This document shows positions 22,352 to 42,440 of a DNA stretch of 64,000 bases, one piece after another; the first letter of the stretch is position 1; every line of letters begins with the position of its first letter. The position numbers were made by a program, and so were the translations under genes. The stretch is from an uncultured Acidobacteriota bacterium (lineage in GTDB: Bacteria > Acidobacteriota > Thermoanaerobaculia > UBA5066), in NCBI GenBank assembly GCA_963779415.1, contig CAVZYA010000001.1, forward strand, positions 640,001 to 704,000, given 5' to 3'. The notes beneath the pieces were generated by a model, which searched no databases, was not told the DNA's origin, and worked only from the letters and a program-made list of their open reading frames with translations.

Positions 22352-24010
22352 TTAGCTCCCTTTCGCCTCCGGAGGAAACCACAAACTGAATGCGGCGCCC
22401 CCTTCCGGGCCTCTCTCCACCCCGATCGACCCCCCGAGATTCGTCATGATCTCCTGGCAGATGGCAAGCCCCAGCCCGGTGTGCTCCCGTGAGCCCTCCT
22501 TCGTCGAGTAGAAAGGCTCGAAGATCCGCGCCCGCTCCTTTTCGGGAATGCCGGGCCCGTTGTCGATCACGCGGACGCGGACTCCCCCGCCTTCGGCCTC
22601 GACCACGAGACGCACCTCTCCCTTCTCTCCAAGGGCGTCCAGCGCGTTGTTGATCAGGTTCAGGAAGACCTGCTGCATCCGCGACAGGCTCGAGCGGATC
22701 AGGGGGATGTCGGGGGCGTATTGCCGGACGATCCGGACCCCGGAGCTCTCGAGCTGTTTCTCGAGGAAGCCGACGGTCTCGTCGAGCGCGGCGGCCACGT
22801 CGACCGGCTCCAGCTCGGGCCCCACCCTGCGGGAGAAGCCGAGAAGCTGGTGCGTGACCTTTCGCCCTCGCTCCACCTGTGCCTCGATCTTGGCGATGCG
22901 CGCCCGGAACTCGTCGCGCTCCGGAAGATCGGGCCTCTCCGCGACGATGTCCGAGAGAACCCCGACCTGCGCCTGGATGATGGCGAGCGGATTGTTGATC
23001 TCGTGGGCGATTCCGGTGGCCAGCCGGCCGATGGCCGCCATCTTCTGCGACTGTGCCACGGACTCGTAGAGCCCGGCGCGCTCGGCTTCCAGCCCCCGGA
23101 ACTGGCGAAGCCGGTAACGGGCGATGAATCGCGAGAGCACGGGCACCGCAACGAGGCCGGCGAGAATCACGCCCGTCACGGCCGGGTGTCCTCCAAGAGG
23201 GAGAAAGGTGCCCGGCACGGGCTGGAGGGCCACCAGCACCCAGGCCTCTCCCCGAAGCCAGGCCGTGCCGAACAGCTCGCGGCGGCCGCCCCGCCGCCCC
23301 TCGACCACCCGCACCCCCGAGTGAAGCGGGACGGGGGGGATGTCGGCACGCTCCATGAGACGGTGCTCCTCGGAGTAGCGCGTCTGGTACTCGCCGTTGC
23401 GGTTGAGGATGAAGACGTCGGCCCCCGACTCGAGCCCCCCCTCGCGGACGAGCGACGAGAGCCGGTCGGTATCGATGCTGGCGCGGACGATCCAGTCCTG
23501 GCCCGCCTCGCGCTTCTTGACCGCCATCACCATGTGGGGAAATCGCCGGAACCCGAGGAAGATGTCGCTCTCGTACCGCCCCTGGACCATCACCTGCTGG
23601 AACCAGCTCTCGCCCGAGTAGTCGAGGCCCGCGAGGTTGTAGGGACCGGCATAAGCGACGTGCCGGCCGTCCGCAGCGATCAGTCCGAGGTCGACGAAGG
23701 CCCCCCCTTCCCTCCGGGACTGCTCGAGGATCGCCGAAAGGAGCGGGGGCCGGGAGAGCTGCTCGACCGGGAGCGCGTCCGCGATCATCTGGAGCTGCCG
23801 CATCGTGTCTCCGAGGAAGAGATCCACCGTGGCCTTGCGGTTCTTGACCATCGCCTCCAGGACGCCCCGCGTACGGCTCTCCTGGATGGCCCGGTTTGCG
23901 AAAGTGACGGCGATCGCGGTCGCGACGACGGGGACGAGACCGAAGGCCAGGAGGACGAAGAAGATCTGCCGGCGGAGGCGCCGGTAGGGATTGGGAGCGG
24001 GCTCAGCCAT
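22352..24010 (-). CDS. Cache-domain sensor histidine kinase
   Basis: Two TM helices, periplasmic FVDLGLI...YAGPYNL...WFQ..ESDIFLGFR.FPH, H-box IAHEINNPL, NNALDA, DNGPGI, TGLGL. Confidence 0.92.
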   Translation of the reverse strand: MAEPAPNPYRRLRRQIFFVLLAFGLVPVVATAIAVTFANRAIQESRTRGVLEAMVKNRKATVDLFLGDTMRQLQMIADALPVEQLSRPPLLSAILEQSRREGGAFVDLGLIAADGRHVAYAGPYNLAGLDYSGESWFQQVMVQGRYESDIFLGFRRFPHMVMAVKKREAGQDWIVRASIDTDRLSSLVREGGLESGADVFILNRNGEYQTRYSEEHRLMERADIPPVPLHSGVRVVEGRRGGRRELFGTAWLRGEAWVLVALQPVPGTFLPLGGHPAVTGVILAGLVAVPVLSRFIARYRLRQFRGLEAERAGLYESVAQSQKMAAIGRLATGIAHEINNPLAIIQAQVGVLSDIVAERPDLPERDEFRARIAKIEAQVERGRKVTHQLLGFSRRVGPELEPVDVAAALDETVGFLEKQLESSGVRIVRQYAPDIPLIRSSLSRMQQVFLNLINNALDALGEKGEVRLVVEAEGGGVRVRVIDNGPGIPEKERARIFEPFYSTKEGSREHTGLGLAICQEIMTNLGGSIGVERGPEGGAAFSLWFPPEAKGS

Positions 24011-26588
24011 TCTCCGCCTCCCCCTTGAAGCCGTAACGGCCCGCCATGAATGCCTCCTCGAAGACGGTGACGAGTGCGTCGGAGGTGAGCGCCATGTCCA
24101 GGTGGTTGACGAAACCCGTCAGCAGCCCGACGAGAACGAGCGCCTGAAGCATCTCCGCGGCGGGGCGGTGACGCGCGCGGGCGTTGACGAGATCGGCCTT
24201 GCAATCGGTCTCGAAGCCGTGGCGCGCCAGGATCCGCTGGATCAGCATCGCCCGGCGCGAGCGCTGGTCCACGCCTGTGGACCCTCCCACGAAGCGGAAC
24301 GAGGCGTAGTTCGACTCCACGGCCTCCCCGACGCGGGCGTCGACCGTCGAGAAGTGATAACCGACCCTCGAATTGAGGTTCATGTAGTCGGATGTAATGA
24401 AGACATACGACGGCTCGCCCATCGCGCGAACCCTCACGTCCTGGTCGTAGTTGTAGTTGACGACCGCCGACAGGAAGCCCGAAACCGAGACGGGCCTCGT
24501 CATGCGCCAGCGGATGCGCGGATCGGTCAATCCGCGCCAGAGCGCGAGAAGCGGGACGGAGACGACGTCTTCGATCGTGACGTCGCCGGACGCCACGTCC
24601 TTTCGAAGGCCCCCGCCGAGATCGAAGAGCCGGCAGTCGATCGGGACCGTCGAAACGAGCCGGTGTACGGGCGTTCCCTGGCGGAGGGCACCGTCCCCGA
24701 GGGCGAACATCGCCTCCACGGCGGCCTGGTGGCAGAAGCGGATCATGTCGTGGAGCGTCCGGCACTTCCGGGGGGAGTAGCCGCTCGCCAGCCGGTCCCG
24801 GAGCGTGAGCGGAACGATGAAGTCGGCCACGGAGGCGAGGCGCTCGACCGCGGGGCTCTGTCGCCCGGGAGGCCGGACTTCCTGGGCACGAACGAGCGCC
24901 TCTTCGACCCGCCCCTCGTAGACCACCCCGGCATCCGCATCGACCGTGACGGAGGCGGCGCCGGGCAGTGCCGTCGTGGCCGCGTTCGTCGCGAGGAGAG
25001 CCGGAACTCGGAGCTCGCGCGCCACGGTGGCCAGATGTCCGGTGACCTCGCCCCTGTCCGCCACGAGAGAGGCGGCCTTGGGAAGCAGGACGGCGAAGCG
25101 GGGGTTCGCCTCGGAAGTCACCAGAACGCCGCCGGAGGGAAAGCGAAGGATGTCGAGATCGGTCTCCACCCGAATCGGCTCCCCGAAGCCGACTCCACCC
25201 GAGGCCCTCGAGCCCCCGTCGAGAAGGACGCGTGCACCGGCGACGCGGGGCGGGGGCGTTCGCCACGTCTCCCCGGCGTGCTCGGGCTGCGGCCGGACCT
25301 GCAGGACGAAGGCGCGGCCCTTCCGGTCGATGGCCCACTCCATGTCCAGGGGCATGCCGAGGTGGTCCTCGAGCTGCCAGGCGAGCCGGGCGACCGAAAG
25401 CGCCTGATCGTCGGAAAGAATCGGGACGACCCCAAGGCCGGCCTGGACCGTCCGCGTCTCGGTCCCTTCCCCTTCGGCGCAGGCAAGGAGGGCGTCCTGG
25501 CGCCCGGAGGTCCTGTTCGTGATCCTCCCGTGTCTGCGGTCGAGGAAGATCGAGTCCGGTACCGCCGAGCCATCCACTGCGGAAAGCCCGAGACCTCGCA
25601 CGGCCTGGATCAGCGTCCGGACGCCGGTTTCGGTCCGGCAGGCGCTGTAGAGCACCCCCGCCGACTCCGCGTCCACCATGGCGAGGACGCAGCAGCACAT
25701 CGCCACCTCGTCATCCTCGAGGCCGCGCCCGAGCCGGTAGGTGATCGCCTGCGGCGAGTACTTGCTGGCCACGACCCGGCGAAAAGCGTCTCCGATCCCG
25801 CCCGCCGGCACGTTGAGGAGCGACCGGTATTGCCCGGCGAACGAGACCTCGAGCCCTCCCTCCTGGAGCGCGCTCGAGCGGACCGCGAAGCGTGTTCCGT
25901 CGCCCCCGAGCGATGCGGCGCCCGTCTCGAGCTCCGCCGCGACGCGCGCGGGAAGTCGCGCATTTTCGATCATCTGGGTGATCCGCGCCGCGGCCGAGAA
26001 GGTGGCGGCGGTGTCCGACGGGTCGAGCGCCGCCATCACCCCGGCGATCTCCTCGGCGAGGCCGGATCGGCCGATGAACTCGCGGTACGCCGGCTCGGTG
26101 GTGGCGAAGCCGTCGGGCACCCGGCCGGGAAGAAGCCGGCGCGCCTCGCCGAGAAAGGCGCTCTTCTGCCCCACGACCTCGGCCATCTCCGCGCGGACCT
26201 CGGCGAGCGGCATGGTGAAGCCGACCGACCCGAGATAGGGCGTCACCTCCGCTCTCCCCGAAATCCGCCCTCGCAGGTCGTGGAAGCGGCGGACGAGGAC
26301 GGGGAAGCGGTCGCCCGTCATCCGGTTCAGGTTCGCGATCATCCGGAATGTCTGGACGGTCACCCCCGCAACGAGACGGCGGCTTTCGGCGGCCGTGACG
26401 GAGCGCTCCCCCGCGAGCGCTTCCTGGATCCGGGTGACGAATCCCAGAGCCGTGTTGTTGGCCTGCAGGACCTCCCGGTAGCAGGACATCCGGACGTCGA
26501 GGTCCGGCATCCCCCTCCTCCCGGGGAGCCATCGGAAGGCTCTCGGGGGCTCGGGATCAGGCGGGCGGTCGCGCGGCGTGGAAACCAC
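24003..26588 (-). CDS. PEP-synthase/PPDK-like protein B
   Basis: GQKSAFL, AVRSSA..SFAGQY, LDMEWA, LQVRP and GEVTGHLATVARE, then CRTLHDMIRFCHQ...GYHFSTVD...HLDM. Confidence 0.85.
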   Translation of the reverse strand: MVSTPRDRPPDPEPPRAFRWLPGRRGMPDLDVRMSCYREVLQANNTALGFVTRIQEALAGERSVTAAESRRLVAGVTVQTFRMIANLNRMTGDRFPVLVRRFHDLRGRISGRAEVTPYLGSVGFTMPLAEVRAEMAEVVGQKSAFLGEARRLLPGRVPDGFATTEPAYREFIGRSGLAEEIAGVMAALDPSDTAATFSAAARITQMIENARLPARVAAELETGAASLGGDGTRFAVRSSALQEGGLEVSFAGQYRSLLNVPAGGIGDAFRRVVASKYSPQAITYRLGRGLEDDEVAMCCCVLAMVDAESAGVLYSACRTETGVRTLIQAVRGLGLSAVDGSAVPDSIFLDRRHGRITNRTSGRQDALLACAEGEGTETRTVQAGLGVVPILSDDQALSVARLAWQLEDHLGMPLDMEWAIDRKGRAFVLQVRPQPEHAGETWRTPPPRVAGARVLLDGGSRASGGVGFGEPIRVETDLDILRFPSGGVLVTSEANPRFAVLLPKAASLVADRGEVTGHLATVARELRVPALLATNAATTALPGAASVTVDADAGVVYEGRVEEALVRAQEVRPPGRQSPAVERLASVADFIVPLTLRDRLASGYSPRKCRTLHDMIRFCHQAAVEAMFALGDGALRQGTPVHRLVSTVPIDCRLFDLGGGLRKDVASGDVTIEDVVSVPLLALWRGLTDPRIRWRMTRPVSVSGFLSAVVNYNYDQDVRVRAMGEPSYVFITSDYMNLNSRVGYHFSTVDARVGEAVESNYASFRFVGGSTGVDQRSRRAMLIQRILARHGFETDCKADLVNARARHRPAAEMLQALVLVGLLTGFVNHLDMALTSDALVTVFEEAFMAGRYGFKGEAENG

Positions 26589-26681: not shown

Positions 26682-28922
26682 TCAGATGAAGAGCGGCGCC
26701 AGGACGAGGGTGATCGTGGAAAGGAGCTTGATCAGGACGTGAAGCGACGGGCCGGCGGTGTCCTTGAACGGGTCGCCCACGGTGTCGCCGACGACGGCTG
26801 CCCCGTGTGTGGGGTTCTTCATTTTCTTGCCGTCCGGCGCCGTCAGGTATTTCCCGCCGTGCGCACCGCTCTCGATGTACTTCTTGGCATTGTCCCAGGC
26901 GCCGCCGCTGTTGTTGAGGAAGAGCGCCATGAGAATCCCGCAGATGGTCCCGACCATGAGCAGACCGGCCACGGCCTCGGCGGAGATGAGCCTGTTTTCC
27001 GGCGTGATGAACATCTTGAAGATGAGGCCGACGCCGATCGGAGTGAGAACCACGAGGAGGCCCGGCGCGACCATCTTGCGGAGCGCTGACTTCGTGACGA
27101 TGTCGACGCAGGCGCTGTAGTCCGGCTTGAAGTCGGCGGGGAACTGGATGATGTCGTTGAGGCGCGGGAGCTTGGCGTACTGCCGGCGCACCTCCTCGAT
27201 GATCGCCTGCGCGGCCTTGCCAACCGCCCGGATGGCCATCGACGAGAAAAGGAAGACCAGGGCCGCACCGATCAGCGCGCCGACGAAGACGACCGGGTTG
27301 GCGAGGTTGACCCCATGCATTTCCTGTCCGGCGTACTGCGCCACCTCGTCCATGTAGGCCTGGAAGAGGAGGAACGCCGCGAGGGCCGCGGACCCGACCG
27401 CGTACCCCTTCGTGAGCGCCTTCGTGGTATTACCAACGGCATCGAGCCGGTCGGTCTTCTTGCGGACGTTCTCCGGCTGCTCGGACATCTCCACGATGCC
27501 GCCCGCGTTGTCCGTGATCGGGCCGAAAGTGTCCATGGCAAGGATGTAGGCCGCCGTCGCGAGCATCCCCATCGTGGCCACGGCAGTGCCGAAGAGGCCC
27601 CCGTGCATCCCGGAGGAAGCCGGGAAGGCCGACTGCCCGAGGAAATAAGACCCGAGAAGCGCGGCGCCCATGACGAGGGTCGGCATCCAGGTGCACTCGA
27701 GGCCGACGCCGACGCCGGCGATGATGTTCGTGGCCGGGCCGGTCTTGGACGCCTCGGCGATCGACTGGACGGGGCGGTACTTGTACTCCGTGTAGTACTG
27801 CGTGATGTAGACGAAGGCGACCGACGTGAGGACCCCGACGATGCCGCAGAGGAAGAAGTGCCACCAGGCGTCGGGCGCGCCCGGCGGGTTGAGGAGCCAG
27901 TATGTCGTTCCGCCGAAGGCCACCATCGCAAGCACCACCGCGTAGTAGTAGCCGCGGTTCAGCGCCTGCATCGGGTCGATCTTCTCTTCCTTGTCCATCT
28001 TGACCATCATGATTCCGATGATCGAGGCGACGATTCCGAAGGCGCGCGCGACGAGGGGGAACATCATCACGCCGATGACGCCGGCGGAGAATCCGAAGTT
28101 GGCCTTCTCCGCGGCGGCCGCCAGCGAGGCCCCGAGGATCATGGCGCCGATGTTCTCGGCGGCCGTCGACTCGAAGAGGTCGGCGCCGCGCCCCGCGCAG
28201 TCGCCCACGTTGTCGCCCACGAGATCGGCGATGACGGCCGGGTTGCGAGGATCATCCTCGGGGATGCCGGCCTCCACCTTGCCGACGAGGTCCGCGCCGA
28301 CGTCGGCCGCTTTCGTGTAGATACCGCCGCCGAGTTGGGCGAAGAGTGCGACGAAGGAGGCTCCGAATCCGTAACCGACGATCAGGAGAGGGATCTTCGT
28401 CGGCTCGACGTTGCCGAACGCGTCCACGAGGGCGTAAAGCCCGCTCACCCCGAGAAGGCTCATGGCCACGACGAGGAGACCGGACACCGCGCCTCCCCGA
28501 AGGGCGATGCGGAGCGCGTCGTTGAGGCTGGTGAGCGCCGCCGTCGCCGTCCGGATGTTGCTCCGGATCGAGACCCACATCCCCACGTACCCGGCGAAGA
28601 CGGAGCAGAGGGCGCCGAAGACGAAGGAGAGGGTGATCCAGAAGGCGAGCGCGTACGAACTCCCCACGGGATCGAACGGGCGGTGTTCCCGGACGACGCC
28701 GTACCCGAGGAAAAGAACGACCGCGAACGCCAGGGCGAGGCCGAGGATCGTCCGGTTCTGACGCCGGAGGAACGCCTCGGCCCCCTCCTTGATCGCGTTC
28801 GAGATCTTCTGCATCGCCTCGCTTCCCGTCGAGAAGCGCAGGACCCAGCGGGCCAGATAGGCGGCGAAGAGCAGGCCGAACACCGAGAATCCGATTACCA
28901 GAAGGATGAGCTGTGCGGTCAT
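26682..28922 (-). CDS. hppA: Membrane-bound H+-translocating pyrophosphatase, K+-independent type
   Basis: GGGIYTKAADVGADLVGKVE..IPEDDPRNP..DNVGDCAG, DTFGPITDNAGG, GNTTKALTKG (Lys at the K+-dependence position), GGAWDNAKK, GDTVGDPFKD. Confidence 0.95.
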   Translation of the reverse strand: MTAQLILLVIGFSVFGLLFAAYLARWVLRFSTGSEAMQKISNAIKEGAEAFLRRQNRTILGLALAFAVVLFLGYGVVREHRPFDPVGSSYALAFWITLSFVFGALCSVFAGYVGMWVSIRSNIRTATAALTSLNDALRIALRGGAVSGLLVVAMSLLGVSGLYALVDAFGNVEPTKIPLLIVGYGFGASFVALFAQLGGGIYTKAADVGADLVGKVEAGIPEDDPRNPAVIADLVGDNVGDCAGRGADLFESTAAENIGAMILGASLAAAAEKANFGFSAGVIGVMMFPLVARAFGIVASIIGIMMVKMDKEEKIDPMQALNRGYYYAVVLAMVAFGGTTYWLLNPPGAPDAWWHFFLCGIVGVLTSVAFVYITQYYTEYKYRPVQSIAEASKTGPATNIIAGVGVGLECTWMPTLVMGAALLGSYFLGQSAFPASSGMHGGLFGTAVATMGMLATAAYILAMDTFGPITDNAGGIVEMSEQPENVRKKTDRLDAVGNTTKALTKGYAVGSAALAAFLLFQAYMDEVAQYAGQEMHGVNLANPVVFVGALIGAALVFLFSSMAIRAVGKAAQAIIEEVRRQYAKLPRLNDIIQFPADFKPDYSACVDIVTKSALRKMVAPGLLVVLTPIGVGLIFKMFITPENRLISAEAVAGLLMVGTICGILMALFLNNSGGAWDNAKKYIESGAHGGKYLTAPDGKKMKNPTHGAAVVGDTVGDPFKDTAGPSLHVLIKLLSTITLVLAPLFI

Positions 28923-29016
28923 GAACGCTTATCTCCTCTCTTTTCCTGCAGAGCCAGGGGTGAACGGTGATACGACACCAGATACTACGACGAGGGGAAT
29001 CGTCAGAATCGGCGTT

Positions 29017-29811
29017 TTAGTGCCCTCCCTGCCCGAACAGAGTCCCCGCGATCCAGCCCGAGACGACCGCGATGAGGACGGTGAAGGCGCCATAGAAGAC
29101 GGGGCGCCGGTCGGCCAGTCTCGAGAGCCAGTCCACGATCCCCGTCTTTCGAAGGAAGAGTTCGTTCGTCTCCATGCCGAGCAGCCGCTCCTCGCCGACG
29201 AAGTACGTCGTGGCGCCGTACAGGCCGTCCGGCGCGGACGCGGGAAGCCGGAAGGAATGGTAGAAGGCGCCTTCGGCGTTCAGCCGGATGGCGTTGGTCC
29301 GGACGCCGTAGAGGCCCCGCTGCGCCTGAAGATCCCAGTAGCCCTTCAGCACGCTCTCCTCCTCCCCGGGCCGAAGGGGCGAGGAAAGGCTCTCGAGACG
29401 CGCCCGAGCGGCCACGTCATCGGGGCCCGTCAGGAGGCCCAGCGGCGCGAGAAGCCGATTGCTGAGTTCGAGGGCGTCGGTATGAGGACAGGGAGCGAAG
29501 CCGTTGCAGACGGGACAACTGACGTTGACGAGGTAGAGCCCCGGCACTCCCGAGAGGCGGTACTGGCGAACGCCGAGCCACAAGAGCGCGACCCGCCCTT
29601 TCTCCATCAGCCGGATCTGCCCGGCCGGAGGACCTTCCATCACCACGATGACGTGGCGGGTCCCGGCCGGAGCCCTCCCGTAAAGGAAGATGTCGCGGCC
29701 CGAGAAGGCGTACGACACGTCGATTCGCCGGACCTCGATCCGGGCGGCGGCGGCCTGCGGGGCCCCCGCGGCCGGTGTCACCGCGAGAGCGACGACGAGG
29801 GCTACGAGCAC
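29017..29811 (-). CDS. TIGR02186-like periplasmic/membrane protein, the usual partner of a TSUP gene
   Basis: Signal peptide, FSGRDIFLYG, KGRVALLWLG, FRLPASAPDGLY, C-terminal TM helix. Lies directly after the TSUP fusion gene. Confidence 0.75.
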   Translation of the reverse strand: MLVALVVALAVTPAAGAPQAAAARIEVRRIDVSYAFSGRDIFLYGRAPAGTRHVIVVMEGPPAGQIRLMEKGRVALLWLGVRQYRLSGVPGLYLVNVSCPVCNGFAPCPHTDALELSNRLLAPLGLLTGPDDVAARARLESLSSPLRPGEEESVLKGYWDLQAQRGLYGVRTNAIRLNAEGAFYHSFRLPASAPDGLYGATTYFVGEERLLGMETNELFLRKTGIVDWLSRLADRRPVFYGAFTVLIAVVSGWIAGTLFGQGGH

Positions 29812-29812
29812 G

Positions 29813-31501
29813 TCAGTGTCCTCCCCCCGCCTTGGCGAAATCGATGAGCTGGTCCGGAGGCATGAGGAGCTGGAAGAGGAGCATCGCCATCACGACGAGG
29901 ACGATCAGGGCGAGGAAGACGCGGATCTGCTCCCCCCGGACGCGGCGGCTGGCGGCCGCCCCGAACTGGGCGCCGATGACGCACCCGGCGAAGAGCACCA
30001 CGGCCAGCATCACGTCCACTGTCCGGTTGGTGATGGCCTGCTGGAGGGCGACGTTGGCCGACGTGAGGACGATCTGGAACAGGTCGGTCCCGACCGCCAC
30101 CCGGGTGGGGATGCCGATGATGTAGATCATCGTCGGGAGCATGATGAATCCCCCCCCGACGCCCAGGAACGCGGCGAGCACCCCGACGAGGAAGCCGGCG
30201 GCTATCGGAAGAAGGACGGAGGTCCGGAGCCCCGATTTCGGAAAGTCGAGCTGAAGCGGGAGTCGGGCGAAGAAGACCGTCAAGGCGCCGCGCGTCGGCT
30301 CGCCGGCGGGCGACTTCCTCCGCCAGGCGCGCAACCCTTCGCGGAGCATGGTGAGGCCGATGAATCCGAGGACGAGGACATAGGTCAGCTTCAGGAAGAA
30401 GTCGAAATTGCCTTGGTTGCGGAGGACCTTCACGAGCTGCACGCCGACGAACCCGCCCGTCCATCCTCCGCCAATGATGAACAGCCCCATCTTGAAGTCG
30501 ACGTTGCCGAGGCGGGAGTGGGAGAGGGCTCCCGACGTGGCCCCGGCGGTGATCTGGGCGGCGTTTGTGGCGGCGGCCACGGCGGCCGGAATGCCGATGA
30601 AGATCAGGAGCGGCGTCATCAGGAAGCCGCCTCCCACGCCGAACAGACCCGAGAGGAAGCCGACGAGACCCCCCATCCCGGCGATCAGAAGAGGGTTCAC
30701 GGACGCCCCGGCCACAGGGAAATAGACCCGGAGCCGCCGGAGGAGGCTCCGCGTCTCGGGACGCCCCTCGTGGTGTCGCACCCTCTCGAACATGGCGGGA
30801 GTGACCTGCGGGTGGCAGACGCGGCAGGTCCGCTCGAGCCGGGCCGGGTTCAGCCTCGAACGCGGGTCGCTCGCCGGGAGGATCCCGTGCGATCCGTGAC
30901 ATGACGGACAGGTGGCCACGTCGAGGATGCCGTGGGAGAGGGCGACTCCGTGGACCGTTCCCTCGAACCCCTCCACACAGGCCGACGGAAGCTCCGTGTG
31001 CCGGATCACCGCCGGGTCGTCGTGGCAGCGGGCACACGTCGTCGAGACGCGGGCCGTGGAGGTGGGAGCGGCGTCGTCGTGTACCGGAAGGACCGTGTGG
31101 CTGCCATGGCACGAGACGCACGTGGGCGAGAGCCCGTCACCGGCCTTCGCGCCTCGGGCGTGAGAACTCTCCGAATACGCATCCAGTTCGGCCTTGTGGC
31201 AGCGGCCGCAGGTCGCGGCGACATTTCTCGCGTTGACCGGCGAGGAGGGCTCGTCCGGCGAAAGCCGCGTCCCCGCGCCATGACACTCCCCGCACGCGAG
31301 GGGAGCGTGAACCCCTGCGAGCGGCACCTGCCCGCCGCGAGCAGGAAGATCGGCGAACATTCGACCCGAAGGGAGGAGAAAAAGAGCGACGACACCTACC
31401 AGAGAGACCGCCTGTCGCCGGAAGGACGCCGGCCGGCCCGTGTCGTGATCGCCGGTGCACGGGAGGCGCGCACCTCCCCTACTCCCCCAGCAGCTCCGCA
31501 C
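29813..31501 (-). CDS. Six-heme cytochrome c fused to a TSUP (TauE/SafE) transporter; start uncertain
   Basis: CGECH, CGRCH, CVSCH, CARCH, CPSCH and CRVCH follow a hydrophobic signal-like stretch. In the same frame come VYFPVAG...GLFGVGGGFLMTP...GNVDFKMG...GVGGGFIMLP...AVGTDL. An in-frame GTG at 31501 lies next to the predicted transcription start. Confidence 0.82.
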   Translation of the reverse strand: MRSCWGSRGGARLPCTGDHDTGRPASFRRQAVSLVGVVALFLLPSGRMFADLPARGGQVPLAGVHAPLACGECHGAGTRLSPDEPSSPVNARNVAATCGRCHKAELDAYSESSHARGAKAGDGLSPTCVSCHGSHTVLPVHDDAAPTSTARVSTTCARCHDDPAVIRHTELPSACVEGFEGTVHGVALSHGILDVATCPSCHGSHGILPASDPRSRLNPARLERTCRVCHPQVTPAMFERVRHHEGRPETRSLLRRLRVYFPVAGASVNPLLIAGMGGLVGFLSGLFGVGGGFLMTPLLIFIGIPAAVAAATNAAQITAGATSGALSHSRLGNVDFKMGLFIIGGGWTGGFVGVQLVKVLRNQGNFDFFLKLTYVLVLGFIGLTMLREGLRAWRRKSPAGEPTRGALTVFFARLPLQLDFPKSGLRTSVLLPIAAGFLVGVLAAFLGVGGGFIMLPTMIYIIGIPTRVAVGTDLFQIVLTSANVALQQAITNRTVDVMLAVVLFAGCVIGAQFGAAASRRVRGEQIRVFLALIVLVVMAMLLFQLLMPPDQLIDFAKAGGGH

Positions 31502-31509
31502 GTGACCCA

Positions 31510-31651
31510 GGAAAGCAAGTACCACGCCCGGATCGCTAATGTCCGCAGATACTTGAACTTCCGTCCGAATCGGTGGCCGGAGCCGTTCCGGCTGTTACCG
31601 TCTCTTCCCAGCGGAGGGGGGTGAGCCTTACCCTGGCGGGACGTCCCCCTG
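31510..31651 (-). promoter_or_regulatory. Sigma54 promoter module copy 1 (-24/-12 at 31514-31529, IHF-like 31546-31558, enhancer box 31593-31610)
   Basis: Minus strand GGGCGTGGTACTTGCT (GG-N10-GC). Box TGTTACCGTCTCTTCCCA starts 78 nt from the -12 C. About 140 bp is homologous to 35572-35712. Confidence 0.75.
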
Positions 31652-31699
31652 CACGCGCCCTCAGCTCCCCTCCGGCCAAGACAACGTGTCGCGCAAGCG

Positions 31700-33262
31700 T
31701 CAGTGTGCGATCGGCGCCAGCACCGGCATGCCCAGGGCTGGCCAGATGACGTAGACGAAGAGCGCCAGGATCAGCATGACGAGCACGCTCGGGATGAGCC
31801 CGTAGAGGAAGAACTCCCCGGACGTGAATTGCTTGCTCTCGTAGGCGATGGCGTTGGGCGCTGCGCCGATGAGCAGGTTGAACGGCATGCCGGCGGTCAC
31901 GAGGCACGAGAAGAGGATCACCGCCGGGGCGACCCCGAGGTAGCGCGCGATGACGAGCGCGACCGGCAGCGCGATGGCGATGGCCGCGACGTTCATGATG
32001 AAGTTCGTCATCACCAGGACGAAGAAGGCAATGCCGAGGACGAACAAGAGCCAGGGGGCGGTGCGGAACATCGTCAGCCAGTGCACGGCGACCCACTCGG
32101 CCGCGCCGGTCTTCCAGAGGCAGAAGCCGATCGACATGGCGCCGCCGAACAGCAGGATGATGTTCCAGGGGATCGACTCGAGGTCCTCGACGGTGAGGGT
32201 CCGGGTCATGAAGAACGCAATGGTGCCGATCAGCATGATGCCCGCGCGGTCGAGCTGAGAAAGGGCGGGCAGGAAAGACTTGAAGACGAAGAGCGCGACG
32301 ATGGTCAGCACGGCGAGGATGACGAACTTCTCCTTGCCGCTCATCGGACCCAGCTCTCGCGCCAGGACCTTCGCCTTGTCGCGCAGGCCCGGAATGGTGG
32401 CGCGCTCGGGCCTGAGGAAGACGATGATGACGACCCAGATCAGGAAGACCATGATCCAGCCCAGGGGCCCGAGGTATTTCGGAAGCTCGAAGAACCCGAT
32501 GTCGCTGCCCGTGAACTCCTTGTACATGCCGGCCGCGGCCACGCCGCGCGCCGAGCCGAGGAAGGTGATGATCGAGCCGGCTCCGGCGACCCAGGCCATC
32601 CCCATGAACAGCCCCTTGCCGAACCGGGTGGGCTTGCCCGAGTCGTCGTAGAGCCCGTTGATGGCGAGCAGGAGGGGGAAGACGGCCGCGGCCACCGCCG
32701 TGTGGGCCATGATGTGAGTCATCAGGGCCGTCACCACGAAGCTACCGAGCAGGATCATGCTGGTCCGCTCGCCGACCAGGGTCAGCATCCTGTAGGCCAT
32801 CCGCTTGGTCAGGCCCGAGCGGCTGAACGCCAGACCGATGACGATCGAGCCGAAGATGAACCAGACCGACGGGTCCATGAAGTCGCTGAGCGCGTCGTGA
32901 GTCGGGCGGATGTTGAACAGTACCTGCACGAGGCCGATGGCGATGGCGGTCACGCCGATGGGCATGACCTCCGTGACCCACCACGTCCCGGCCATGAGGA
33001 AGAGGCCGGCGGCGAGCTTCCCCTGCCAGGAGAGCTTGAAGACCTTGCCCCCTGGGTCGACCGCGTCGGGGAGGCCCGGCAGGAAGTAGAAGACGACGAA
33101 GATCCCGATGCCGAGGAGGATCCAGGTGACGCGCCGCCAGTCGATCTTCGGCCGCTTCGGCGCGACCACGATCTCCGCCGGCATGGGCGGGAGGCCGGCC
33201 GGCGGGGCCTGGGCGCGGGGGGTGGCGGCGGATCCGCCGTCACCGATGGTCGAGGTTGTCAT
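31700..33262 (-). CDS. DASS/SLC13-family divalent anion:Na+ symporter (sulfate/carboxylate)
   Basis: WWVTEVMPIG, SGLTKRMA, MAHTA, GSIITFLGSARG, IPWNIILLFGGAMSIG, TNFIMNVA, GAAPNAIAY. Start set at MTTSTIG. Confidence 0.88.
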   Translation of the reverse strand: MTTSTIGDGGSAATPRAQAPPAGLPPMPAEIVVAPKRPKIDWRRVTWILLGIGIFVVFYFLPGLPDAVDPGGKVFKLSWQGKLAAGLFLMAGTWWVTEVMPIGVTAIAIGLVQVLFNIRPTHDALSDFMDPSVWFIFGSIVIGLAFSRSGLTKRMAYRMLTLVGERTSMILLGSFVVTALMTHIMAHTAVAAAVFPLLLAINGLYDDSGKPTRFGKGLFMGMAWVAGAGSIITFLGSARGVAAAGMYKEFTGSDIGFFELPKYLGPLGWIMVFLIWVVIIVFLRPERATIPGLRDKAKVLARELGPMSGKEKFVILAVLTIVALFVFKSFLPALSQLDRAGIMLIGTIAFFMTRTLTVEDLESIPWNIILLFGGAMSIGFCLWKTGAAEWVAVHWLTMFRTAPWLLFVLGIAFFVLVMTNFIMNVAAIAIALPVALVIARYLGVAPAVILFSCLVTAGMPFNLLIGAAPNAIAYESKQFTSGEFFLYGLIPSVLVMLILALFVYVIWPALGMPVLAPIAH

Positions 33263-33276
33263 CTGATCCCCCGCGG

Positions 33277-33786
33277 CTAGCCCTCGGGGAGGGCGGCGGT
33301 GATCGCGTTGTAGGCGTCGTCGAGCCGCACGATGCCGGCGACCTGGTTGCCCTCCATGGCCGCGAGCGCGGGGACTCCGTCCGCGAGCATGAGGCTCGCG
33401 GCGTGCGTGAGCGTGTCGTCCACGCGGACCGTCGACTTGACCGGCACCATGAACTCCTTGACCGGCGCCGCGGCCGCCTGCGCGCTGGCCTTGAGGTCGC
33501 TCCAGAGCGCGGCCAGCTCGGTCGGCTCGGCCGTGGGCCACCCGCCGGCGGGCTGCTTCGTGAGGAAGCGCGGTTCCAGGCCCCGGAGGATGTTCTCGGG
33601 CCTGAGGAGACCGAGGAGCTGGTACTTCTCGTCGAAGACCAGCACCAGCCGCGGCGAGGGCGGCTCGTCGTCCATCTCGGCGATGCGGAGCAGGGTGATG
33701 GCTTGTCGCAGGCTGAACCAGTACGGCATGTGCGGGTACTTGGTCAGAGGGACCATGGAGTCGCGCACCGCGGTCTTGTGTGGCAT
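33277..33786 (-). CDS. Tandem CBS-domain protein
   Basis: VRDSMVPLTKYPH...LVLVFDEKYQLLGLL...VKEFMVPV...AMEGNQVAGIVR. GAGGAGG RBS before the ATG at 33786. Confidence 0.82.
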   Translation of the reverse strand: MPHKTAVRDSMVPLTKYPHMPYWFSLRQAITLLRIAEMDDEPPSPRLVLVFDEKYQLLGLLRPENILRGLEPRFLTKQPAGGWPTAEPTELAALWSDLKASAQAAAAPVKEFMVPVKSTVRVDDTLTHAASLMLADGVPALAAMEGNQVAGIVRLDDAYNAITAALPEG

Positions 33787-33812: not shown

Positions 33813-35564
33813 CTACTTCAGCACCAGCAGCAGGTAAATCGACGAGATGATCATGCTCATGAGCATGAACGGCATGCCCACCTTGAGGAACGCGCGGAAC
33901 GAGACGGGGTAGCCGGCCTTCTCGAGAAGCCCGGCGGTGACGATGTTGGCGCTGGCGCCGACGAGCGTGCCGTTGCCCCCGAAGCACGCGCCCAGGGAGA
34001 GCGCCCAGAAGAGCACCATGTTCTCGGCGCCCGGCAGGTTCCTGGTCATGTAGGCGACGATGGGAAGCATCGTCGCCGTGAACGGGATGTTGTCGATGGC
34101 CGCCGAAAGGATGGCCGACACCCAGGCAATCACGAGGATCGCGACGACCAGGTTGCCGGCGGAGACCCCGAGCACAAAGTCGGCCACGACCTGCAGGATT
34201 CCGGCCCTGGCCGCGGCGCCGACCACGATGAAAAGCATCATGAAGAAGACGAGCGAGGACCACTCGACGTCCTTTTCCAGGATGTGGACCAGGTCTTTCT
34301 TCGAGATGGCCAGCAGTACCGCGGCGCCGACGAGCGCGGCCACGCTCACCTCCATGTGCAGCGCGCCATGGAGAATGAACATGCCGATGACCATGGCGAG
34401 CACGCCGAGCCCCTGCCACATGAGCTTCCGGTCGGTGATGGAGTAGCGCGCCTCCATGGACACGAACATCCGTTGCAGCTCGGTCTCGTCGAGCTGGGCG
34501 GCCCGGTACTCCTTGCGGTACCAGAGCTTGGTCATCAGGGCCTGCGCCACCATGACGATGATGACGACGGGCGTCAGCTTTGCGACGAAATCGTTGAAGG
34601 TCAGCCCCGCGAACGAGCCGATCATGATGTTGGGCGGATCGCCGATGAGGGTGGCCGTGCCGCCGAAGTTCGAAGCGAAGACGAGCGGCAGGAGCAGGGA
34701 GAAGGGGTGCAGCTTCAGGATCACGCAGATCTCGATGGCGACCGGCGTGAGCAGGAGCATGGTGGTCACGTTGTCGAGGAAGGCCGAGACGATGGCCGTG
34801 ACGAACATCATGATCACGGAGAGGACGTAGACCTTGCCGCGCGCCACCTCGAAGCTCTTGAAGGCGAGCCACTGGAAGAGGCCCGTGTCCTTGAGGATCC
34901 CCACGATGATCATCATCCCGAAGAGGAGGAAGATGACGTTCCAGTCGATGGCCCGCATGGCGTCGGGGAAGGTGATGACGACCCAGTCGGGGCTAACGTG
35001 GCCGGCGGTGTAGGAGAGCACGAGGAGGACACTGGCGCCGAGGAACGCCGCCAGGGTGCGGTGCATGACCTCGGCGGCGATCAGGACGTAGACGGCAAGG
35101 AGAGCGACCAGGGCCACCCAGAAGGCCGCCGACCATGTCCGGTCGAGGGCCACGTCCAGGTGGGCCACGTACGCGGCGGCTGGCCCCGGCTGCCGGTGGA
35201 GCCCGGGCACCTCCACGGGCCCAAGACGGCGATAGGTGGTCCGCTCGAAGACCAGGGTGACGCGGGCACGGGCCGCCTGGGCGGCCGGCAGCTCGAAGTC
35301 CAGGCGGTAGCTTCCGTCGAAACCACTCAAAAAGCCGCCCGGCGACGACGTGACCGGCGTGCCGTCCACCAGCGCGGTGATGCGGCAGCCGGCAACCGCC
35401 TCCTTGTGCCGGTCGTTCACGGCGCCGATGAGGGTGATCTTCGCGCTGGCGCCCCCGGCCTGCGATGCGGGTGGCGTGACATCGTTCGCGGCGACCCCGT
35501 GACCGCCGAGCAGAGCCACCAGGAGCAAGAGGCCGCCGCCCACACTCCGCCAGCCGATCCGCAC
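33813..35564 (-). CDS. ArsB/NhaD (ion-transporter superfamily) permease with an N-terminal extracytoplasmic domain
   Basis: Signal peptide plus a beta-rich domain, then IDWNVIFLLFGMM, SAFLDNVTT, SNFGGTATLIGDPPNIMI, SAAIDNIPF, GGNGTLVGASAN. Confidence 0.87.
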   Translation of the reverse strand: MRIGWRSVGGGLLLLVALLGGHGVAANDVTPPASQAGGASAKITLIGAVNDRHKEAVAGCRITALVDGTPVTSSPGGFLSGFDGSYRLDFELPAAQAARARVTLVFERTTYRRLGPVEVPGLHRQPGPAAAYVAHLDVALDRTWSAAFWVALVALLAVYVLIAAEVMHRTLAAFLGASVLLVLSYTAGHVSPDWVVITFPDAMRAIDWNVIFLLFGMMIIVGILKDTGLFQWLAFKSFEVARGKVYVLSVIMMFVTAIVSAFLDNVTTMLLLTPVAIEICVILKLHPFSLLLPLVFASNFGGTATLIGDPPNIMIGSFAGLTFNDFVAKLTPVVIIVMVAQALMTKLWYRKEYRAAQLDETELQRMFVSMEARYSITDRKLMWQGLGVLAMVIGMFILHGALHMEVSVAALVGAAVLLAISKKDLVHILEKDVEWSSLVFFMMLFIVVGAAARAGILQVVADFVLGVSAGNLVVAILVIAWVSAILSAAIDNIPFTATMLPIVAYMTRNLPGAENMVLFWALSLGACFGGNGTLVGASANIVTAGLLEKAGYPVSFRAFLKVGMPFMLMSMIISSIYLLLVLK

Positions 35565-38393: not shown

Positions 38394-40898
38394 TCACAGG
38401 GCCAGGTGGTAGCCGCCCGCGATGAACTCCCGGGCGAAATGCTGGGCCGCTGCGTCGGAGAACATCATCATGTCGAGCTGTTTTGCGGCCATCATGAGGC
38501 GCCCGAGGACGTCGAGGCGCTCCTCGAGCGCCGCGACGTCGTAGCCGTCGATGCGCGCGACCAGGAAGTCCGCCTGGCGCTGCAGGCGGAAGTCGACGTG
38601 GCGGAGCACCTGCGTAAGGAACTCGATGCGGCGGACCCGGCGCGTGATGTCCGCCCCGCCGCCGTAGAAGGTCAGGCTGACGTACGAGTCGTGGTCCTCG
38701 TGGAGGAACGAGTCAATCACCGCGAAGTGGAAGCCCATGCGGTTGGAAAGGTTGAGGTAGGACTCGGCGACCAGGGCGAAGTTCCGCTCCTCGAGGCGAC
38801 CACGAATGCTCGTGTCGGCGGCGGCGGACATGACCACCGACATGAACCCGCCGAGGTCCATCGGCTTGGGGCCCTTCCAGCCGGCCGCGACCACGCCGCG
38901 CCAGTACGCGAGGAACGGGCGCGAGAGGATGTCCTCCGGGGTCACGACCGCCCGGCTCGCGGCTTCCTCCTTGAGCCCCCGCTCGAGATCTATGACCCAG
39001 ATGTCCAGCGGGATGTTGCTCTTCAGGCGCTTGGCGCTCCTCGCCTCGGGGCTCCCCTCGGGAACCTCGAAGAACGAGCGCATCGCCATCTCGTGGGCGA
39101 AGCGAGTGACGTCGTGGAAGGTCTCACAGCGGTCGGGCCGGAAGTCGGAAGCGCGCGGATCGGTCAGGTTGAGCGGCACGACGTCCTGCAGCACGGCCTG
39201 GAGCGCGCGGTAGGGGCGGCTCCCCCGGATCAGGCTCCTGTCGGGCGCGGGCGCGGCCAGTAGCTCCTCGACCCGGCCCCGGTAGACGTTACCGTAGAAC
39301 GCATCGACGGTGACGGTCTCGCCCGCGGGCAGGAGCTCGCAGGCCCGCCGGGCGCCGAAGAGGGCTGGCAGGGCGGCCTCGCGCAGAACCGTGGCCAGGT
39401 GGCTCGTCGTCGAGCCTACCTCACAGACCACGGCACGGGCGCGGCCCAGGTGGACGGTGTAGTCCAGCGACGGGCTGCGGGCCACCAGCACGCAGCCCTC
39501 CGGCACCTCGTTCCCGTCGTCACACATGAGGTGGACCGGTCCCGCCGCGGCGCCCCGGCTGGCGATCAGCGCCCGGTCGACGAGCAGAGGAGCACCCTTG
39601 ACCACCGGTGGCTGGTAGGACGCCGGGCTGCGCACGCGAAGCGGCCGCGACTGGAGCAGAGCGAGCTGCCCATCCTGGCCGAGGGCCCACTCCATGTCCT
39701 GCGGGTCGCCAAGCAGCTCGCGCACCTGCTCCCCGAGGCGCACCAGCTCCTGTGCGTCCGCGGCGGACAGGGACGCTACGTGCCGCTGCCCGGCCGGCGT
39801 CGCGCGCACCTCGGTGCCGCCCTCGGCGAGGCACACCGCCATGCGAGTCTTGTCGCCGACCGCGACCTCGAGCTGTCCCGCGCGATTCACGCGCAGCACG
39901 TCCGGGCTGACGTCGCCGCCAACCGCCATGGTGCCGAGGCCCCAGACGGCGTTGATCACGCGCTCGCCCTCCTCGGGGCTGGCCGGGTCGACGCTGTAGA
40001 AGACGCCGGCGGCCCGAGCGTCCACCATGTCCATCACGAGCACCCCCATGCCCATCTCCTCGTACGAGTACCCGTGGGCGTTGCAGTAGTAGAGGGCGCG
40101 GGGGGTGAACTGACTGGCAAGCACCGTCTTGTACGCCGCGGCCGTCTCCTCGCGGGGCACGTTGAGGACGCTCTCGAACTGGCCGGCGAAGCTGAAGAAG
40201 CTGTCCTCGTGGATGGCGCTCGAACGGACCGCCACGCGCGCGCCGAGGCGCGTGGCGTGGCCGTCGATGGCGGTGCGCAGCTCTGGCGGGATCTCGGCCG
40301 CGACGATGCGTTGCCGGATGGCGTCACCCGCGCGGCGCAGGCTCTCCATGTCGCCGGCGCTGGTCCCGGCCAGCTCCTCCGCCACCAGGCGGGAGAGGCC
40401 CGCCCCTTCGAAGAAAAGACGCTGGCCGTAAGCGGTGACCACGAACCCCGACGGGACGGGCAGGCCCGCGCGCGCGAGGCGCCCGAGGTTGAGGGCCTTG
40501 CCACCGGCCTGGTGGGCGTCGTCGGGGATGGCTTCGAGTGGGAAGACCAGAGGACCCGGCTCGATCCGCGCCGGGTCGAGCCTCCCTCTCACCCGAGCGC
40601 GGATGCGGGCCACGACCTCATGCAGCTCGGTGAAGCGCCCGTCTGACAGCTCGACGAGCCCGTCCACCAGGCTGTCGACGTGCGCGCCGAGTTCGTCGCA
40701 CGACCCGCGGACGTAGGACATGTCGAACAGGTAGCCCTCGGAGGCCTTGGCCTGCAGGTCGCCAATGAGGGCGAGGACGGCGTAGTTCTCTCCGAGGAAC
40801 TCGCGGAAACGCGTGTAGCGGGTTGCGAGCGTCGAGCGAGGCCGCACGGTGGCGCCTTTGGCCGGCTGCTTCCGGTGCCATCGATCGAGCCACTCCAC
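38394..40898 (-). CDS. PEP-synthase/PPDK-like protein C
   Basis: GGKALNL, AVRSSAIHED..SFAGQF, QDMEWA, LQSRPL and GSTTSHLATVLRE, then CETFHDVTRFAHE...GFHFAVID...KQLDM. Confidence 0.85.
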   Translation of the reverse strand: MEWLDRWHRKQPAKGATVRPRSTLATRYTRFREFLGENYAVLALIGDLQAKASEGYLFDMSYVRGSCDELGAHVDSLVDGLVELSDGRFTELHEVVARIRARVRGRLDPARIEPGPLVFPLEAIPDDAHQAGGKALNLGRLARAGLPVPSGFVVTAYGQRLFFEGAGLSRLVAEELAGTSAGDMESLRRAGDAIRQRIVAAEIPPELRTAIDGHATRLGARVAVRSSAIHEDSFFSFAGQFESVLNVPREETAAAYKTVLASQFTPRALYYCNAHGYSYEEMGMGVLVMDMVDARAAGVFYSVDPASPEEGERVINAVWGLGTMAVGGDVSPDVLRVNRAGQLEVAVGDKTRMAVCLAEGGTEVRATPAGQRHVASLSAADAQELVRLGEQVRELLGDPQDMEWALGQDGQLALLQSRPLRVRSPASYQPPVVKGAPLLVDRALIASRGAAAGPVHLMCDDGNEVPEGCVLVARSPSLDYTVHLGRARAVVCEVGSTTSHLATVLREAALPALFGARRACELLPAGETVTVDAFYGNVYRGRVEELLAAPAPDRSLIRGSRPYRALQAVLQDVVPLNLTDPRASDFRPDRCETFHDVTRFAHEMAMRSFFEVPEGSPEARSAKRLKSNIPLDIWVIDLERGLKEEAASRAVVTPEDILSRPFLAYWRGVVAAGWKGPKPMDLGGFMSVVMSAAADTSIRGRLEERNFALVAESYLNLSNRMGFHFAVIDSFLHEDHDSYVSLTFYGGGADITRRVRRIEFLTQVLRHVDFRLQRQADFLVARIDGYDVAALEERLDVLGRLMMAAKQLDMMMFSDAAAQHFAREFIAGGYHLAL

Positions 40899-42300: not shown

Positions 42301-42440
42301 TGGAGGACGTCGGGACGTTCGGACGTTCTCGGCCGAATGTCAAGGAGGCCGCCAAGGCGTCGGCGGGTGCGCCCGCGTGCTAGGATCTTGCTCCGAAGCG
42401 AGGAAGGTGCGCGTCGTCGGTCGAGGTGGACACTAGCACC

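Follow-up and report, generated by a model that had tools for sequence, protein, structure and literature searches.

The inner-membrane bc-cytochrome CbcL of metal reducers consists of a multiheme cytochrome c fused to a HydC/FdnI-type cytochrome b, and in Fet3-Ftr1 iron uptake as well as in redox-gated channels each activity has a protein of its own, and copper or thiols serve as redox centres. Here we describe a gene that joins a cytochrome to a transporter in a single chain. It lies at 29813..31501 on the minus strand of a 64,000-nucleotide stretch of DNA (the window) from an uncultured Acidobacteriota bacterium of the class Thermoanaerobaculia (GenBank assembly GCA_963779415.1, contig CAVZYA010000001.1, positions 640,001 to 704,000), and it encodes a six-heme c-type cytochrome domain that runs in frame into a complete permease domain of the TauE/SafE (TSUP) family. 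According to the accessible text of a comparative study, TSUP proteins, some of them labelled CysZ, are candidates for the transport of sulfate in sulfate reducers, and their function is not yet predictable (PMC5840216). TSUP genes lie near sat or apr in some sulfate reducers and have been proposed to carry sulfate, sulfite or sulfonates, as stated in the accessible portions of two studies (PMC5840216, PMC3949148), and the word cytochrome does not occur in the accessible text of the first (PMC5840216). Our literature searches returned no description of a fusion between a multiheme domain and TauE/TSUP, nor of the TIGR02186/Alph_Pro_TM/PF09608 family to which its partner belongs, in keeping with the original prediction, made from the sequence alone, which knew of no characterised example. 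The fusion is likewise unmentioned in the accessible main texts of Flieder et al. (10.1101/2020.10.01.322446), Hausmann et al. (PMC6018796) and Neukirchen et al. (PMC10504309), the supplements of which may list the gene.

A six-heme cytochrome fused in frame to a TSUP permease

The gene reads from a GTG at 31501 as a protein of 562 amino acids, with matches to Pfam TauE and to cytochrome c families, within a longest stop-free frame of 570 amino acids (29813-31525, minus strand, GTG 31525) whose residue numbers are used throughout. The GTG at 31501, which had been chosen originally, is preferred because it aligns with the ATG of the orthologues at loci L138 and L003, and a length of 562 amino acids is also found in the relatives P0003, P0007 and P0009. 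The six CxxCH motifs (CGECH at residue 78, CGRCH at 106, CVSCH at 136, CARCH at 164, CPSCH at 206 and CRVCH at 234, starting at nucleotides 31294, 31210, 31120, 31036, 30910 and 30826) are followed, as had been read from the sequence, by an uninterrupted TSUP domain: Pfam TauE (PF01925) matches residues 282-548 with 154.6 bits against a cut-off of 32.6 (E 4.5e-45) and covers profile positions 2-236 of 237. Weaker than this are the matches of residues 75-240 to cytochrome c7/c3, paired-CXXCH and MtrC-type families. With a GC3 of 0.85, the codon-position GC of the gene resembles that of its neighbours and is gene-like throughout.

The AlphaFold model of the fused protein (mean pLDDT 82.4, pTM 0.74, poor only at 1-33, 51-65 and 559-570) places in order a helix at 36-50, the heme domain at 66-262, a hairpin at 267-276, helices at 278-402, a second hairpin at 425-436 and helices at 438-554. 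The first helix (31376..31420, minus strand, as are all parts of the gene) is hydrophobic, follows a basic stretch and is predicted to be a signal anchor or signal peptide. Protein-level conservation extends over the first approximately 35 residues ([MV][KR]SCW..LP.T..H..GRP..RR), the window and L138/L003 showing synonymous differences there, and such a conserved tail ahead of the helix suggests an uncleaved anchor with a cytoplasmic tail. The predicted periplasmic six-heme domain (30740..31330; pLDDT 85-97) is connected by an Arg-rich linker with a beta-hairpin (RRLRVYFPVAG, 30695..30739; strands 267-269 and 274-276) to the TSUP domain (residues 278-555, 29861..30694), and the protein closes with a tail ending in AGGGH (29816..29860). 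Both TSUP repeats are built from a helix, a GxGGG motif, a short helix and three further helices, and FGVGGGF and LGVGGGF are invariant in the TSUP alignments. The linker motif recurs before the second TSUP half (residues 425-436; strands 425-428 and 433-436) and is present in heme-less relatives too, and -GGH ends most TSUPs of the subfamily. The protein thus shares with TauE/SafE/TsaS-type permeases a full domain above the Pfam cut-off, the two-repeat helix pattern and the GxGGG motifs, but differs from them by its periplasmic six-heme domain, its N-terminal helix and a partner with a Cys cluster. By every feature tested it is a member of the TSUP family to which a redox domain and a co-varying partner have been added.

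The idea that an assembly or sequencing error joined two separate genes is scarcely conceivable. It draws on the thin coverage of the junction, which is bridged by one 184-nt contig of a public run (X2; 30691-30874) with three substitutions and no gap, so that the check in reads comes out in favour of the fusion with thin support only. The public-run contigs, which are short, of low depth, leave several bins uncovered and include no piece spanning the gene, list no insertion or deletion. Against an error stands, above all, the recurrence of the same fusion. A search of a protein collection gave 6303 relatives among 8000 scored candidates, and in 103 of the best 120, to which the counts refer, at least five CxxCH motifs precede the TSUP domain (five in nine proteins, six in 48, seven in three, eight in three, nine in 38 and ten in two); a further 11, which are shorter records, have one to four, and six have none. 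These relatives bear only the names 'TSUP family transporter' or 'uncharacterized membrane protein YfcA' and come from Thermoanaerobaculaceae or Acidobacteriota assemblies. The core motif spacing of 28/30/28/42/28 is kept among them, and across 71 aligned fused proteins all CxxCH columns reach 99-100% conservation. Among 401 sampled genomes of the phylum, one per species, the fused form is present in three, namely this genome and two of the 400 others, G373 and G143, which both belong to one family of the same class as the window genome; it was found in 0/3 genomes of the window's own family. Metagenome contigs scanned with the heme core yielded 11 further fused loci and two truncated ones. 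The homologues are therefore fused in many independent assemblies instead of always being separate genes, and together with the gene-like codon-position GC this refutes the artefact for practical purposes.

The closest relative in the genome collection is L001, a 4.6-kb contig on which the gene is 82% and the pyrophosphatase 96% identical; it is labelled Acidithiobacillales and may be mis-binned, as all other close relatives are labelled Acidobacteriota or Thermoanaerobaculia.

In a FastTree tree of 64 TSUP domains, a selection comprising the window, 37 of the 120 database proteins spanning the heme counts, one in three of the heme-less genome loci and the heme-less copy of this genome itself, the domains with six, nine and ten hemes form one clade with 98% local support, apart from the 29 heme-less rows, and a small seven-heme clade stands separately. 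Three heme-less database proteins that fall within the fused clade (P0110, P0111 and P0114) were considered as genuine heme losses and rejected, as they are near-identical to fused proteins and start inside the linker; we regard them as truncated gene calls. Heme-less TSUP genes of about 50% identity, accompanied by the same partner, are frequent in Alphaproteobacteria, Desulfobacterota and Planctomycetota. The partner was matched at 69 of 79 genome loci and is co-directional and downstream at 68 of them, and a multiheme open reading frame (ORF) occurs within 6 kb of only two of 76 heme-less loci. These heme-less pairs have the downstream partner, the linker hairpin and the -GGH tail in common with the fused locus, but lack both the heme domain and the Cys cluster of its partner (0/66).

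Heme domain, membrane topology and accessory subunit

Each of the six hemes has one conserved candidate distal His, namely H122 (100% of 71 rows), H143 (96%), H192 (99%), H213 (99%), H251 (92%) and H73 (66%), the last occurring in the six- and seven-heme forms; H198 (83%) and M245 (86%) are spare ligand candidates. Because every heme is provided with a conserved candidate second His, the ligation pattern suggests a plain electron-transfer wire rather than a catalytic heme. No Cys outside the CxxCH motifs is conserved in the heme domain across the 71 rows (C183 reaches 7%). The heme packing of the model resembles that of HAO (4n4j, Z 7.5) and MtrA (6r2q_A, Z 6.2), and a sequence search of the PDB with the fused protein gave weak cytochrome matches only, at E 0.002 or worse. 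In NCBIfam, residues 57-125 show a weak similarity to the ExtN/ExtO cytochromes of a selenite/tellurite operon. This similarity could speak for a reductase-permease with a non-sulfur substrate, in which a metal or metalloid oxyanion (selenite, tellurite, chromate, Fe or Mn) would be reduced outside and then transported, all the more as TSUP belongs to a superfamily that includes metal transporters and a split chromate-transporter pair is encoded at 18366-19411 of the window. However, the ExtN/ExtO scores lie far under the cut-offs (25 bits vs 200), and the repeated sat/apr/qmo/pyrophosphatase context described below argues against it, so that we regard such a substrate as very improbable.

Searched alone, the heme domain has matches in 215 of the 401 phylum genomes. 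Twelve of these loci were pulled; two are TSUP fusions (this genome's own and that of G373), and most of the others are frames of 680-750 amino acids with 10-11 CxxCH motifs followed by hydrophobic helices, in which PF01292 cytochrome b was detected at both loci scanned (L090, 65.5 bits; L093, 49.7 bits). The heme domain is 38-45% identical to the 10-11-heme proteins fused to PF01292 cytochrome b, and this genome's own 9- and 11-heme paralogues (L085, L087) end in a single helix. Judged by these identities, its closest relatives are multiheme-c/cytochrome-b fusions, and TSUP stands in the place of the b subunit. The fused protein is thus like CbcL-type bc-cytochromes in having an N-terminal periplasmic multiheme domain and a C-terminal membrane domain, but the window protein lacks a PF01292 domain and has TauE there instead. 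As this TSUP domain has neither conserved heme-b ligands nor a quinol site, the protein cannot be a quinol oxidase of the CbcL kind.

There is no hydrophobic segment between the last heme motif and the first TSUP helix, and a complex model with the partner (see below) puts the linker on the side of the partner's secreted domain; on this modelling, the heme domain must face the periplasm, in agreement with the topology originally envisaged. The same model agrees with eight membrane crossings of the permease and a periplasmic position of both its ends. The TSUP domain contains no invariant or near-invariant Cys (21 and 71 aligned sequences), nor do its helices contain a conserved His or Cys able to carry electrons across the membrane, and in lacking conserved Cys they differ from thiol electron carriers of the DsbD/CcdA type. 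The nearest solved fold of the membrane part is BacA/UppP (5oon_A, Z 10.8, rmsd 4.4, 237 residues aligned), a likeness between helical bundles that is suggestive only. A Foldseek search of the fused model against the PDB gave nothing at E 0.001 or better, and a sequence search turned up no TSUP structure in the PDB.

The partner (29017..29811, minus strand, 264 amino acids) is a member of Alph_Pro_TM/PF09608 (139.4 bits vs 24.5) whose GTG is separated by 1 nt from the TGA of the fused gene. It had been called TIGR02186-like, and the wording is apt, since it reaches the PF09608 cut-off and misses that of TIGR02186 (75.2 bits vs 255.25, with only residues 158-259 aligned). Its model (pLDDT 94.3) starts with a signal sequence, followed by an Ig-like sandwich into which a helical segment is inserted, by an amphipathic helix and by a membrane helix at 237-260, and the chain ends in GQGGH. 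A search of the ESM Atlas with the partner returned Alph_Pro_TM clusters only.

A complex prediction with residues 56-570 of the fused protein and 24-264 of the partner reached an ipSAE of 0.68 (runs 0.67, 0.69 and 0.68) against 0.00 for the best control, a mark that 116 of 157 solved complexes attain, as do 2 of 215 mismatched pairs; as own alignments were used here, these counts hold roughly. The runs share at least 83% of contacts, with a partner pLDDT of at least 75, and the prediction supports binding between TSUP and partner. In the model, the partner helix packs on TSUP residues 323-335 and 486-520, the sandwich makes contact, through 32-38 and 66-84, with the linker hairpin (266-275) and the tail (553-565), and the C-terminal end of the partner meets the TSUP loop 371-373.

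Across the loci L001-L079, Gly-Gly-His (or G-A-H, G-H-H) terminates TSUP as well as partner in Acidobacteriota, Desulfobacterota and Planctomycetota, and most alphaproteobacterial partners end in basic residues instead. By the predicted topology, the Gly-Gly-His tails of TSUP (29816-29830) and partner (29017-29034) would lie on opposite sides of the membrane.

Residues 99-110 of the partner form a Cys cluster, CPVCNGFAPCPH (29482..29517, minus strand), in the loop 98-112 between the sandwich and the helices. It takes the form CPxCx5C[PR]H in the six-heme group and CPx8-9CP in the nine-heme group, so that partners of nine-heme forms keep only two of the three cysteines. The cluster is present in all five readable partners of fused genes in the genome set (window, L001, L002, L128 and L129; L003 is frame-broken), and all 66 partners of heme-less genes, among them the one in this genome's heme-less pair, lack it. 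At the metagenome loci, the canonical cluster is found in seven of eight partners, with a variant pair at L142; L140 and L141 are identical there, L144 has the same partner as L128, and the sequence of L137 breaks off ahead of the Cys site. This restriction to partners of fused genes lends indirect support to redox coupling.

The same cluster could also serve chemistry on the substrate itself. The complex might act as a periplasmic sulfur-redox station, where an intermediate such as thiosulfate, polysulfide, tetrathionate or sulfite would be bound on the partner's Cys, oxidised or reduced via the hemes and its product passed through TSUP to or from Apr, Sat or Dsr, which corresponds to the original suggestion of a heme wire acting on the transported species. 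The specificity of the cluster for partners of fused genes and the sulfur-pathway context of the fused gene would suit such a station. In addition, the accessible text of a study of Dissulfuribacter thermophilus reports a heme-less pair induced under thiosulfate disproportionation (TauE +1.56 and 'co-occurring transmembrane protein' +1.79 log2-fold) and proposes that it exports sulfite or sulfate (PMC13490349). The Ig-like sandwich of the partner also resembles SoxZ (2ox5_Z, Z 8.4), but that match was rejected as evidence, as it ties among 1182 chains at Z of at least 5 and marks a generic Ig-like fold. However, with a candidate second His at all six hemes, there is no sign of a catalytic heme that is open or ligated by Cys/Lys, the heme domain conserves no Cys outside CxxCH, no confident contact between the heme domain and the Cys loop is predicted, and the nine-heme forms keep just two of the three partner cysteines. 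We therefore consider a sulfur-redox station unlikely, although far from negligible.

Sulfur-gene context and the role of the fusion

The link of the fused gene to sulfur metabolism is stronger than could be seen from the window alone, as the gene lies in or beside sat/aprBA/qmoABC/H+-pyrophosphatase clusters. The genes at L002 (a Thermoanaerobaculia assembly), L128 (G373) and L129 (G143) follow one another as aprB, aprA, one for a CxxCxxCC protein, qmoA, qmoB, qmoC, the nine-heme fused gene, the partner and sat, and qmoC passes the NCBIfam equivalog NF038018 (395 bits vs 300). Homologues of AprA, QmoB and Sat flank the fused gene in the same order at L143 and L144, the partner is followed by sat at L142 and L148, and qmoB lies upstream of the fused gene at L145, L146, L147 and L159. 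An H+-pyrophosphatase adjoins in the window and at L001, L003 and L138 (upstream at L138), and L003 adds sat and a qmoC-like gene. None of the sat/apr/qmo/pyrophosphatase neighbours was seen at L137 (a 3.5-kb contig), L139 and L140/L141. In this genome, the fused gene is located at C1:669813-671501, sharing its contig with dsrMK-dsrAB at about 710-716 kb, aprB at 716.2 kb, then aprA and qmo, and sat at 724.2-725.5 kb.

The sulfur island just past the window end (C1:704001-726000) comprises a dsrN-like amidase gene, a dsrL-like Fer4_20/Pyr_redox gene in two pieces, dsrB, dsrA, dsrK and dsrM, and continues with aprB, aprA, a gene for a CxxCxxCC protein, a long frame that includes qmoB, and sat. 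Genes of the DsrJOP type did not turn up in this annotated stretch.

The position directly after qmoC in the nine-heme loci raises the possibility that the hemes constitute an electron-entry module, passing electrons from periplasmic hydrogenase, from formate dehydrogenase or from the cytochrome pool to QmoC or a different redox protein of the membrane to reduce adenosine 5'-phosphosulfate (APS), with TSUP and partner acting mainly as an anchor. The periplasmic cytochromes of Tmc and Hmc complexes feed electrons likewise, and the derivation of the heme domain from proteins wired to a membrane cytochrome b would agree with such a function. Yet no part of the protein is more conserved than TSUP, which shares dozens of invariant columns with heme-less transporters, and this is unexpected of an anchor, for which a single helix would suffice, as in the paralogues L085 and L087. 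Moreover, the six-heme forms often lie away from qmo (window, L001, L138 and L139), and the TSUP helices have no conserved His or Cys for the transmembrane passage of electrons. An electron-entry module thus appears distinctly improbable to us.

The reading that we prefer, although we put its chance somewhat short of even, is that the fused protein is an anion permease of the sulfate-activation/APS-reduction module, redox-coupled or redox-gated and carrying sulfate or sulfite. In this mechanism, the N-terminal helix would export a six-heme, all-bis-His cytochrome domain to the periplasm, and the short Arg-rich hairpin would tether it to an eight-crossing TSUP permease. The accessory Alph_Pro_TM subunit, probably coupled translationally to the permease, would contribute its Ig-like periplasmic domain and a single helix packing on the TSUP bundle. 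TSUP and partner together would form the inorganic sulfur-anion permease of the sat/H+-pyrophosphatase/aprBA/qmoABC module in a dsrAB-bearing Acidobacteriota lineage, with sulfate uptake as the likeliest task and export of sulfite or sulfate as a possibility if the pathway is oxidative. The heme wire might then report or pass the redox state of the periplasmic cytochrome pool to the partner's Cys cluster (CPxC...CPH), such that transport would be opened, closed or driven accordingly. In its specific form, a redox-gated or redox-driven sulfate/sulfite permease whose fused multiheme wire sets a thiol/disulfide (or metal) switch on the accessory subunit, this mechanism is possible but doubtful in our estimation. 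The resemblance to Fet3-Ftr1-type systems, in which outer-face redox chemistry is coupled to passage through a permease, would be one of concept only; the window protein differs in its fused multiheme wire, and no sequence relation is claimed.

The architecture, its conservation, the pairing with the partner, the genomic association and the co-occurrence of Cys cluster and hemes were established, and from them we infer the substrate, the direction of transport and the heme-to-cysteine switch. Correspondingly, the interpretation of the original prediction, that transport may be redox-gated or redox-coupled or that a periplasmic heme wire may act on the transported sulfur species, stands as to a real and conserved architecture, periplasmic hemes and a sulfur context, and stays inferential as to substrate, direction and the role of the hemes in gating, driving or substrate chemistry.

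Several observations weigh against a redox-controlled sulfate or sulfite permease. The reduction of a two-electron disulfide by one-electron hemes is unusual chemistry. The heme domain (56-265) and the Cys loop (98-112) are absent from the confident interface of the complex model, in which residues that are not named are uncertain rather than excluded, so that the model lends no support to a contact between hemes and cysteines. The co-occurrence of cysteines and hemes is confined to one clade, may reflect a single historical event and involves several loci that are near-duplicates. In the window genome, the fused gene is 39-53 kb from dsrAB/apr/qmo/sat and not adjacent to them, and DsrD and DsrH were not found in this 92%-complete genome, where the DsrD control matched nowhere, so that the pathway may run in either direction. 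The alphaproteobacterial (Roseobacter-type) heme-less pair follows an ABC transporter, is otherwise surrounded by unrelated genes and has no sulfur context. Finally, in the accessible text of Marietou et al., most TSUP genes of sulfate reducers lie far from pathway genes (PMC5840216).

Upstream region, surrounding genes and implications

The fused gene had been assigned its own sigma-54 promoter. What stands of this assignment is a GG-N10-GC block at 31514..31529 (minus strand; -24 GGC at 31528-31526, -12 TTGCT at 31518-31514), as GGCG-N7-CTTGCTT is invariant, within diverged sequence, at all seven six-heme loci with an intergenic upstream region (window, L001, L137, L138, L003, L139 and L140), and is absent, as expected, where the fused gene follows qmoC in an operon. 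The block has three mismatches to TGGCAC in the window and one or two at L138, L003, L139 and L140, and a scan of the window for TGGCAC-N5-TTGCW with at most two mismatches gave 16 matches against 12.4 +/- 3.3 expected, which is chance level. The promoter is hence a supported candidate predicted from sequence. A first sigma-54 hit at 31509-31524 was in the wrong register and was superseded by the comparison across loci. A gene for a sigma-54 activator lies 17 kb away (11390-12775), and a scan of 28800-31900 for sigma-70 promoters and terminators found no promoter-like site and two terminator-like ones (1.7 expected), both intragenic. About 80 nt upstream of the -24 box, a conserved element, GGGAAGAGACGGTAACAGC / GAAGAGACGGTAACAGC (31591..31609, minus strand), keeps its GGTAAC core and flanks in six of seven aligned orthologous regions that are otherwise diverged, and could be an activator-binding site. 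The start codon is found 13 nt after the -12 GC at five of the seven loci (GTG in the window, L001 and L137; ATG at L138 and L003), and the mRNA would be nearly leaderless if the candidate promoter is used.

The next gene downstream of the pair encodes a membrane H+-pyrophosphatase (26682..28922, minus strand; Pfam H_PPase 855 bits), followed by a PPDK_N/PEP-utilizer 'dikinase-like' protein (24003..26588, minus strand) that is like the N-terminal part of PEP synthase only. A PPDK_N/PEP-utilizer homologue occurs at 27 of the 79 genome loci, mostly directly after the partner, and it is also the third gene of this genome's heme-less pair (L136:2976-5588); in the window it lies one gene further, after the pyrophosphatase. 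At the Desulfobacterota loci L078, L020 and L030, a sigma-54 response regulator gene lies upstream, and the partner is followed by a Usp gene in two of them and by the PPDK_N gene at L078. These arrangements suggest a conserved three-gene module of TSUP, partner and PPDK_N-like protein, its chemistry unassigned, in Desulfobacterota and Acidobacteriota loci. The window holds three PPDK_N plus PEP-utilizer swivel paralogues of about 835-860 amino acids (19429-21936, 24003-26588 and 38394-40898, all on the minus strand), none with a recognised substrate domain, each of which adjoins a dCache histidine kinase and a single-domain response regulator.

Upstream of the fused gene lie a DASS-family anion symporter (31700..33541, minus strand; Na_sulph_symp 152 bits, TIGR00785 185 bits and thus below the cut-off of 198.6) and a transporter of the CitMHS/ArsB superfamily (33813..35564, minus strand; Pfam CitMHS 274 bits). 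The window is rich in anion carriers altogether, comprising DASS, CitMHS, a SulP protein with three STAS stretches, two more TauE proteins and a split ChrA. The SulP-family sulfate permease (42426-46013, plus strand, 1195 amino acids) is unusually long for its family with its three STAS-type stretches. The two further TauE genes (13973-14908 and 16680-17981, plus strand) are 36-39% identical to the fused gene in the TSUP part; ORFs without a family match lie between and after them (14913-16142 and 17994-18326), followed by the split chromate-transporter pair (18366-19411, plus strand). In addition, P-loop kinase-like proteins of the Cytidylate_kin2 type, equipped with BON and/or CBS domains, are encoded repeatedly next to TSUP genes and next to the sat/apr cluster, in the window at 12799-13737 (plus strand) and 40918-42300 (minus strand) and elsewhere at L135:2599-4104 and 10085-11086 and at L003:12493-15327. 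At L003, Cytidylate_kin2 is apparently fused to a TauE domain in a 944-aa frame directly after the partner gene.

As for its bearing on these families, the fusion is a case of domains exchanged between respiratory bc-cytochromes and transporters, gives the Alph_Pro_TM partner, which is widespread and uncharacterised, a link to a function and provides a free topological marker, which on the modelled topology places the N-terminus of this TSUP subfamily in the periplasm. How sulfate enters dissimilatory sulfate reducers is still unsettled, and the fused gene, which in several genomes stands directly between qmoC and sat and brings its own redox domain, is a concrete candidate for the missing transport step. 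The coupling of a permease to the periplasmic electron pool may represent a new principle, and even if the hemes merely feed Qmo, the finding would still bear on the supply of electrons to APS reduction. If the proposed redox control is true, the ATP-costly activation of sulfate would be allowed only when no better acceptor keeps the cytochrome pool oxidised, the protein would be the first known transporter controlled by its own covalently attached multiheme domain, and for one lineage of sulfate reducers a name could be put to the dedicated sulfate carrier that has long been sought.

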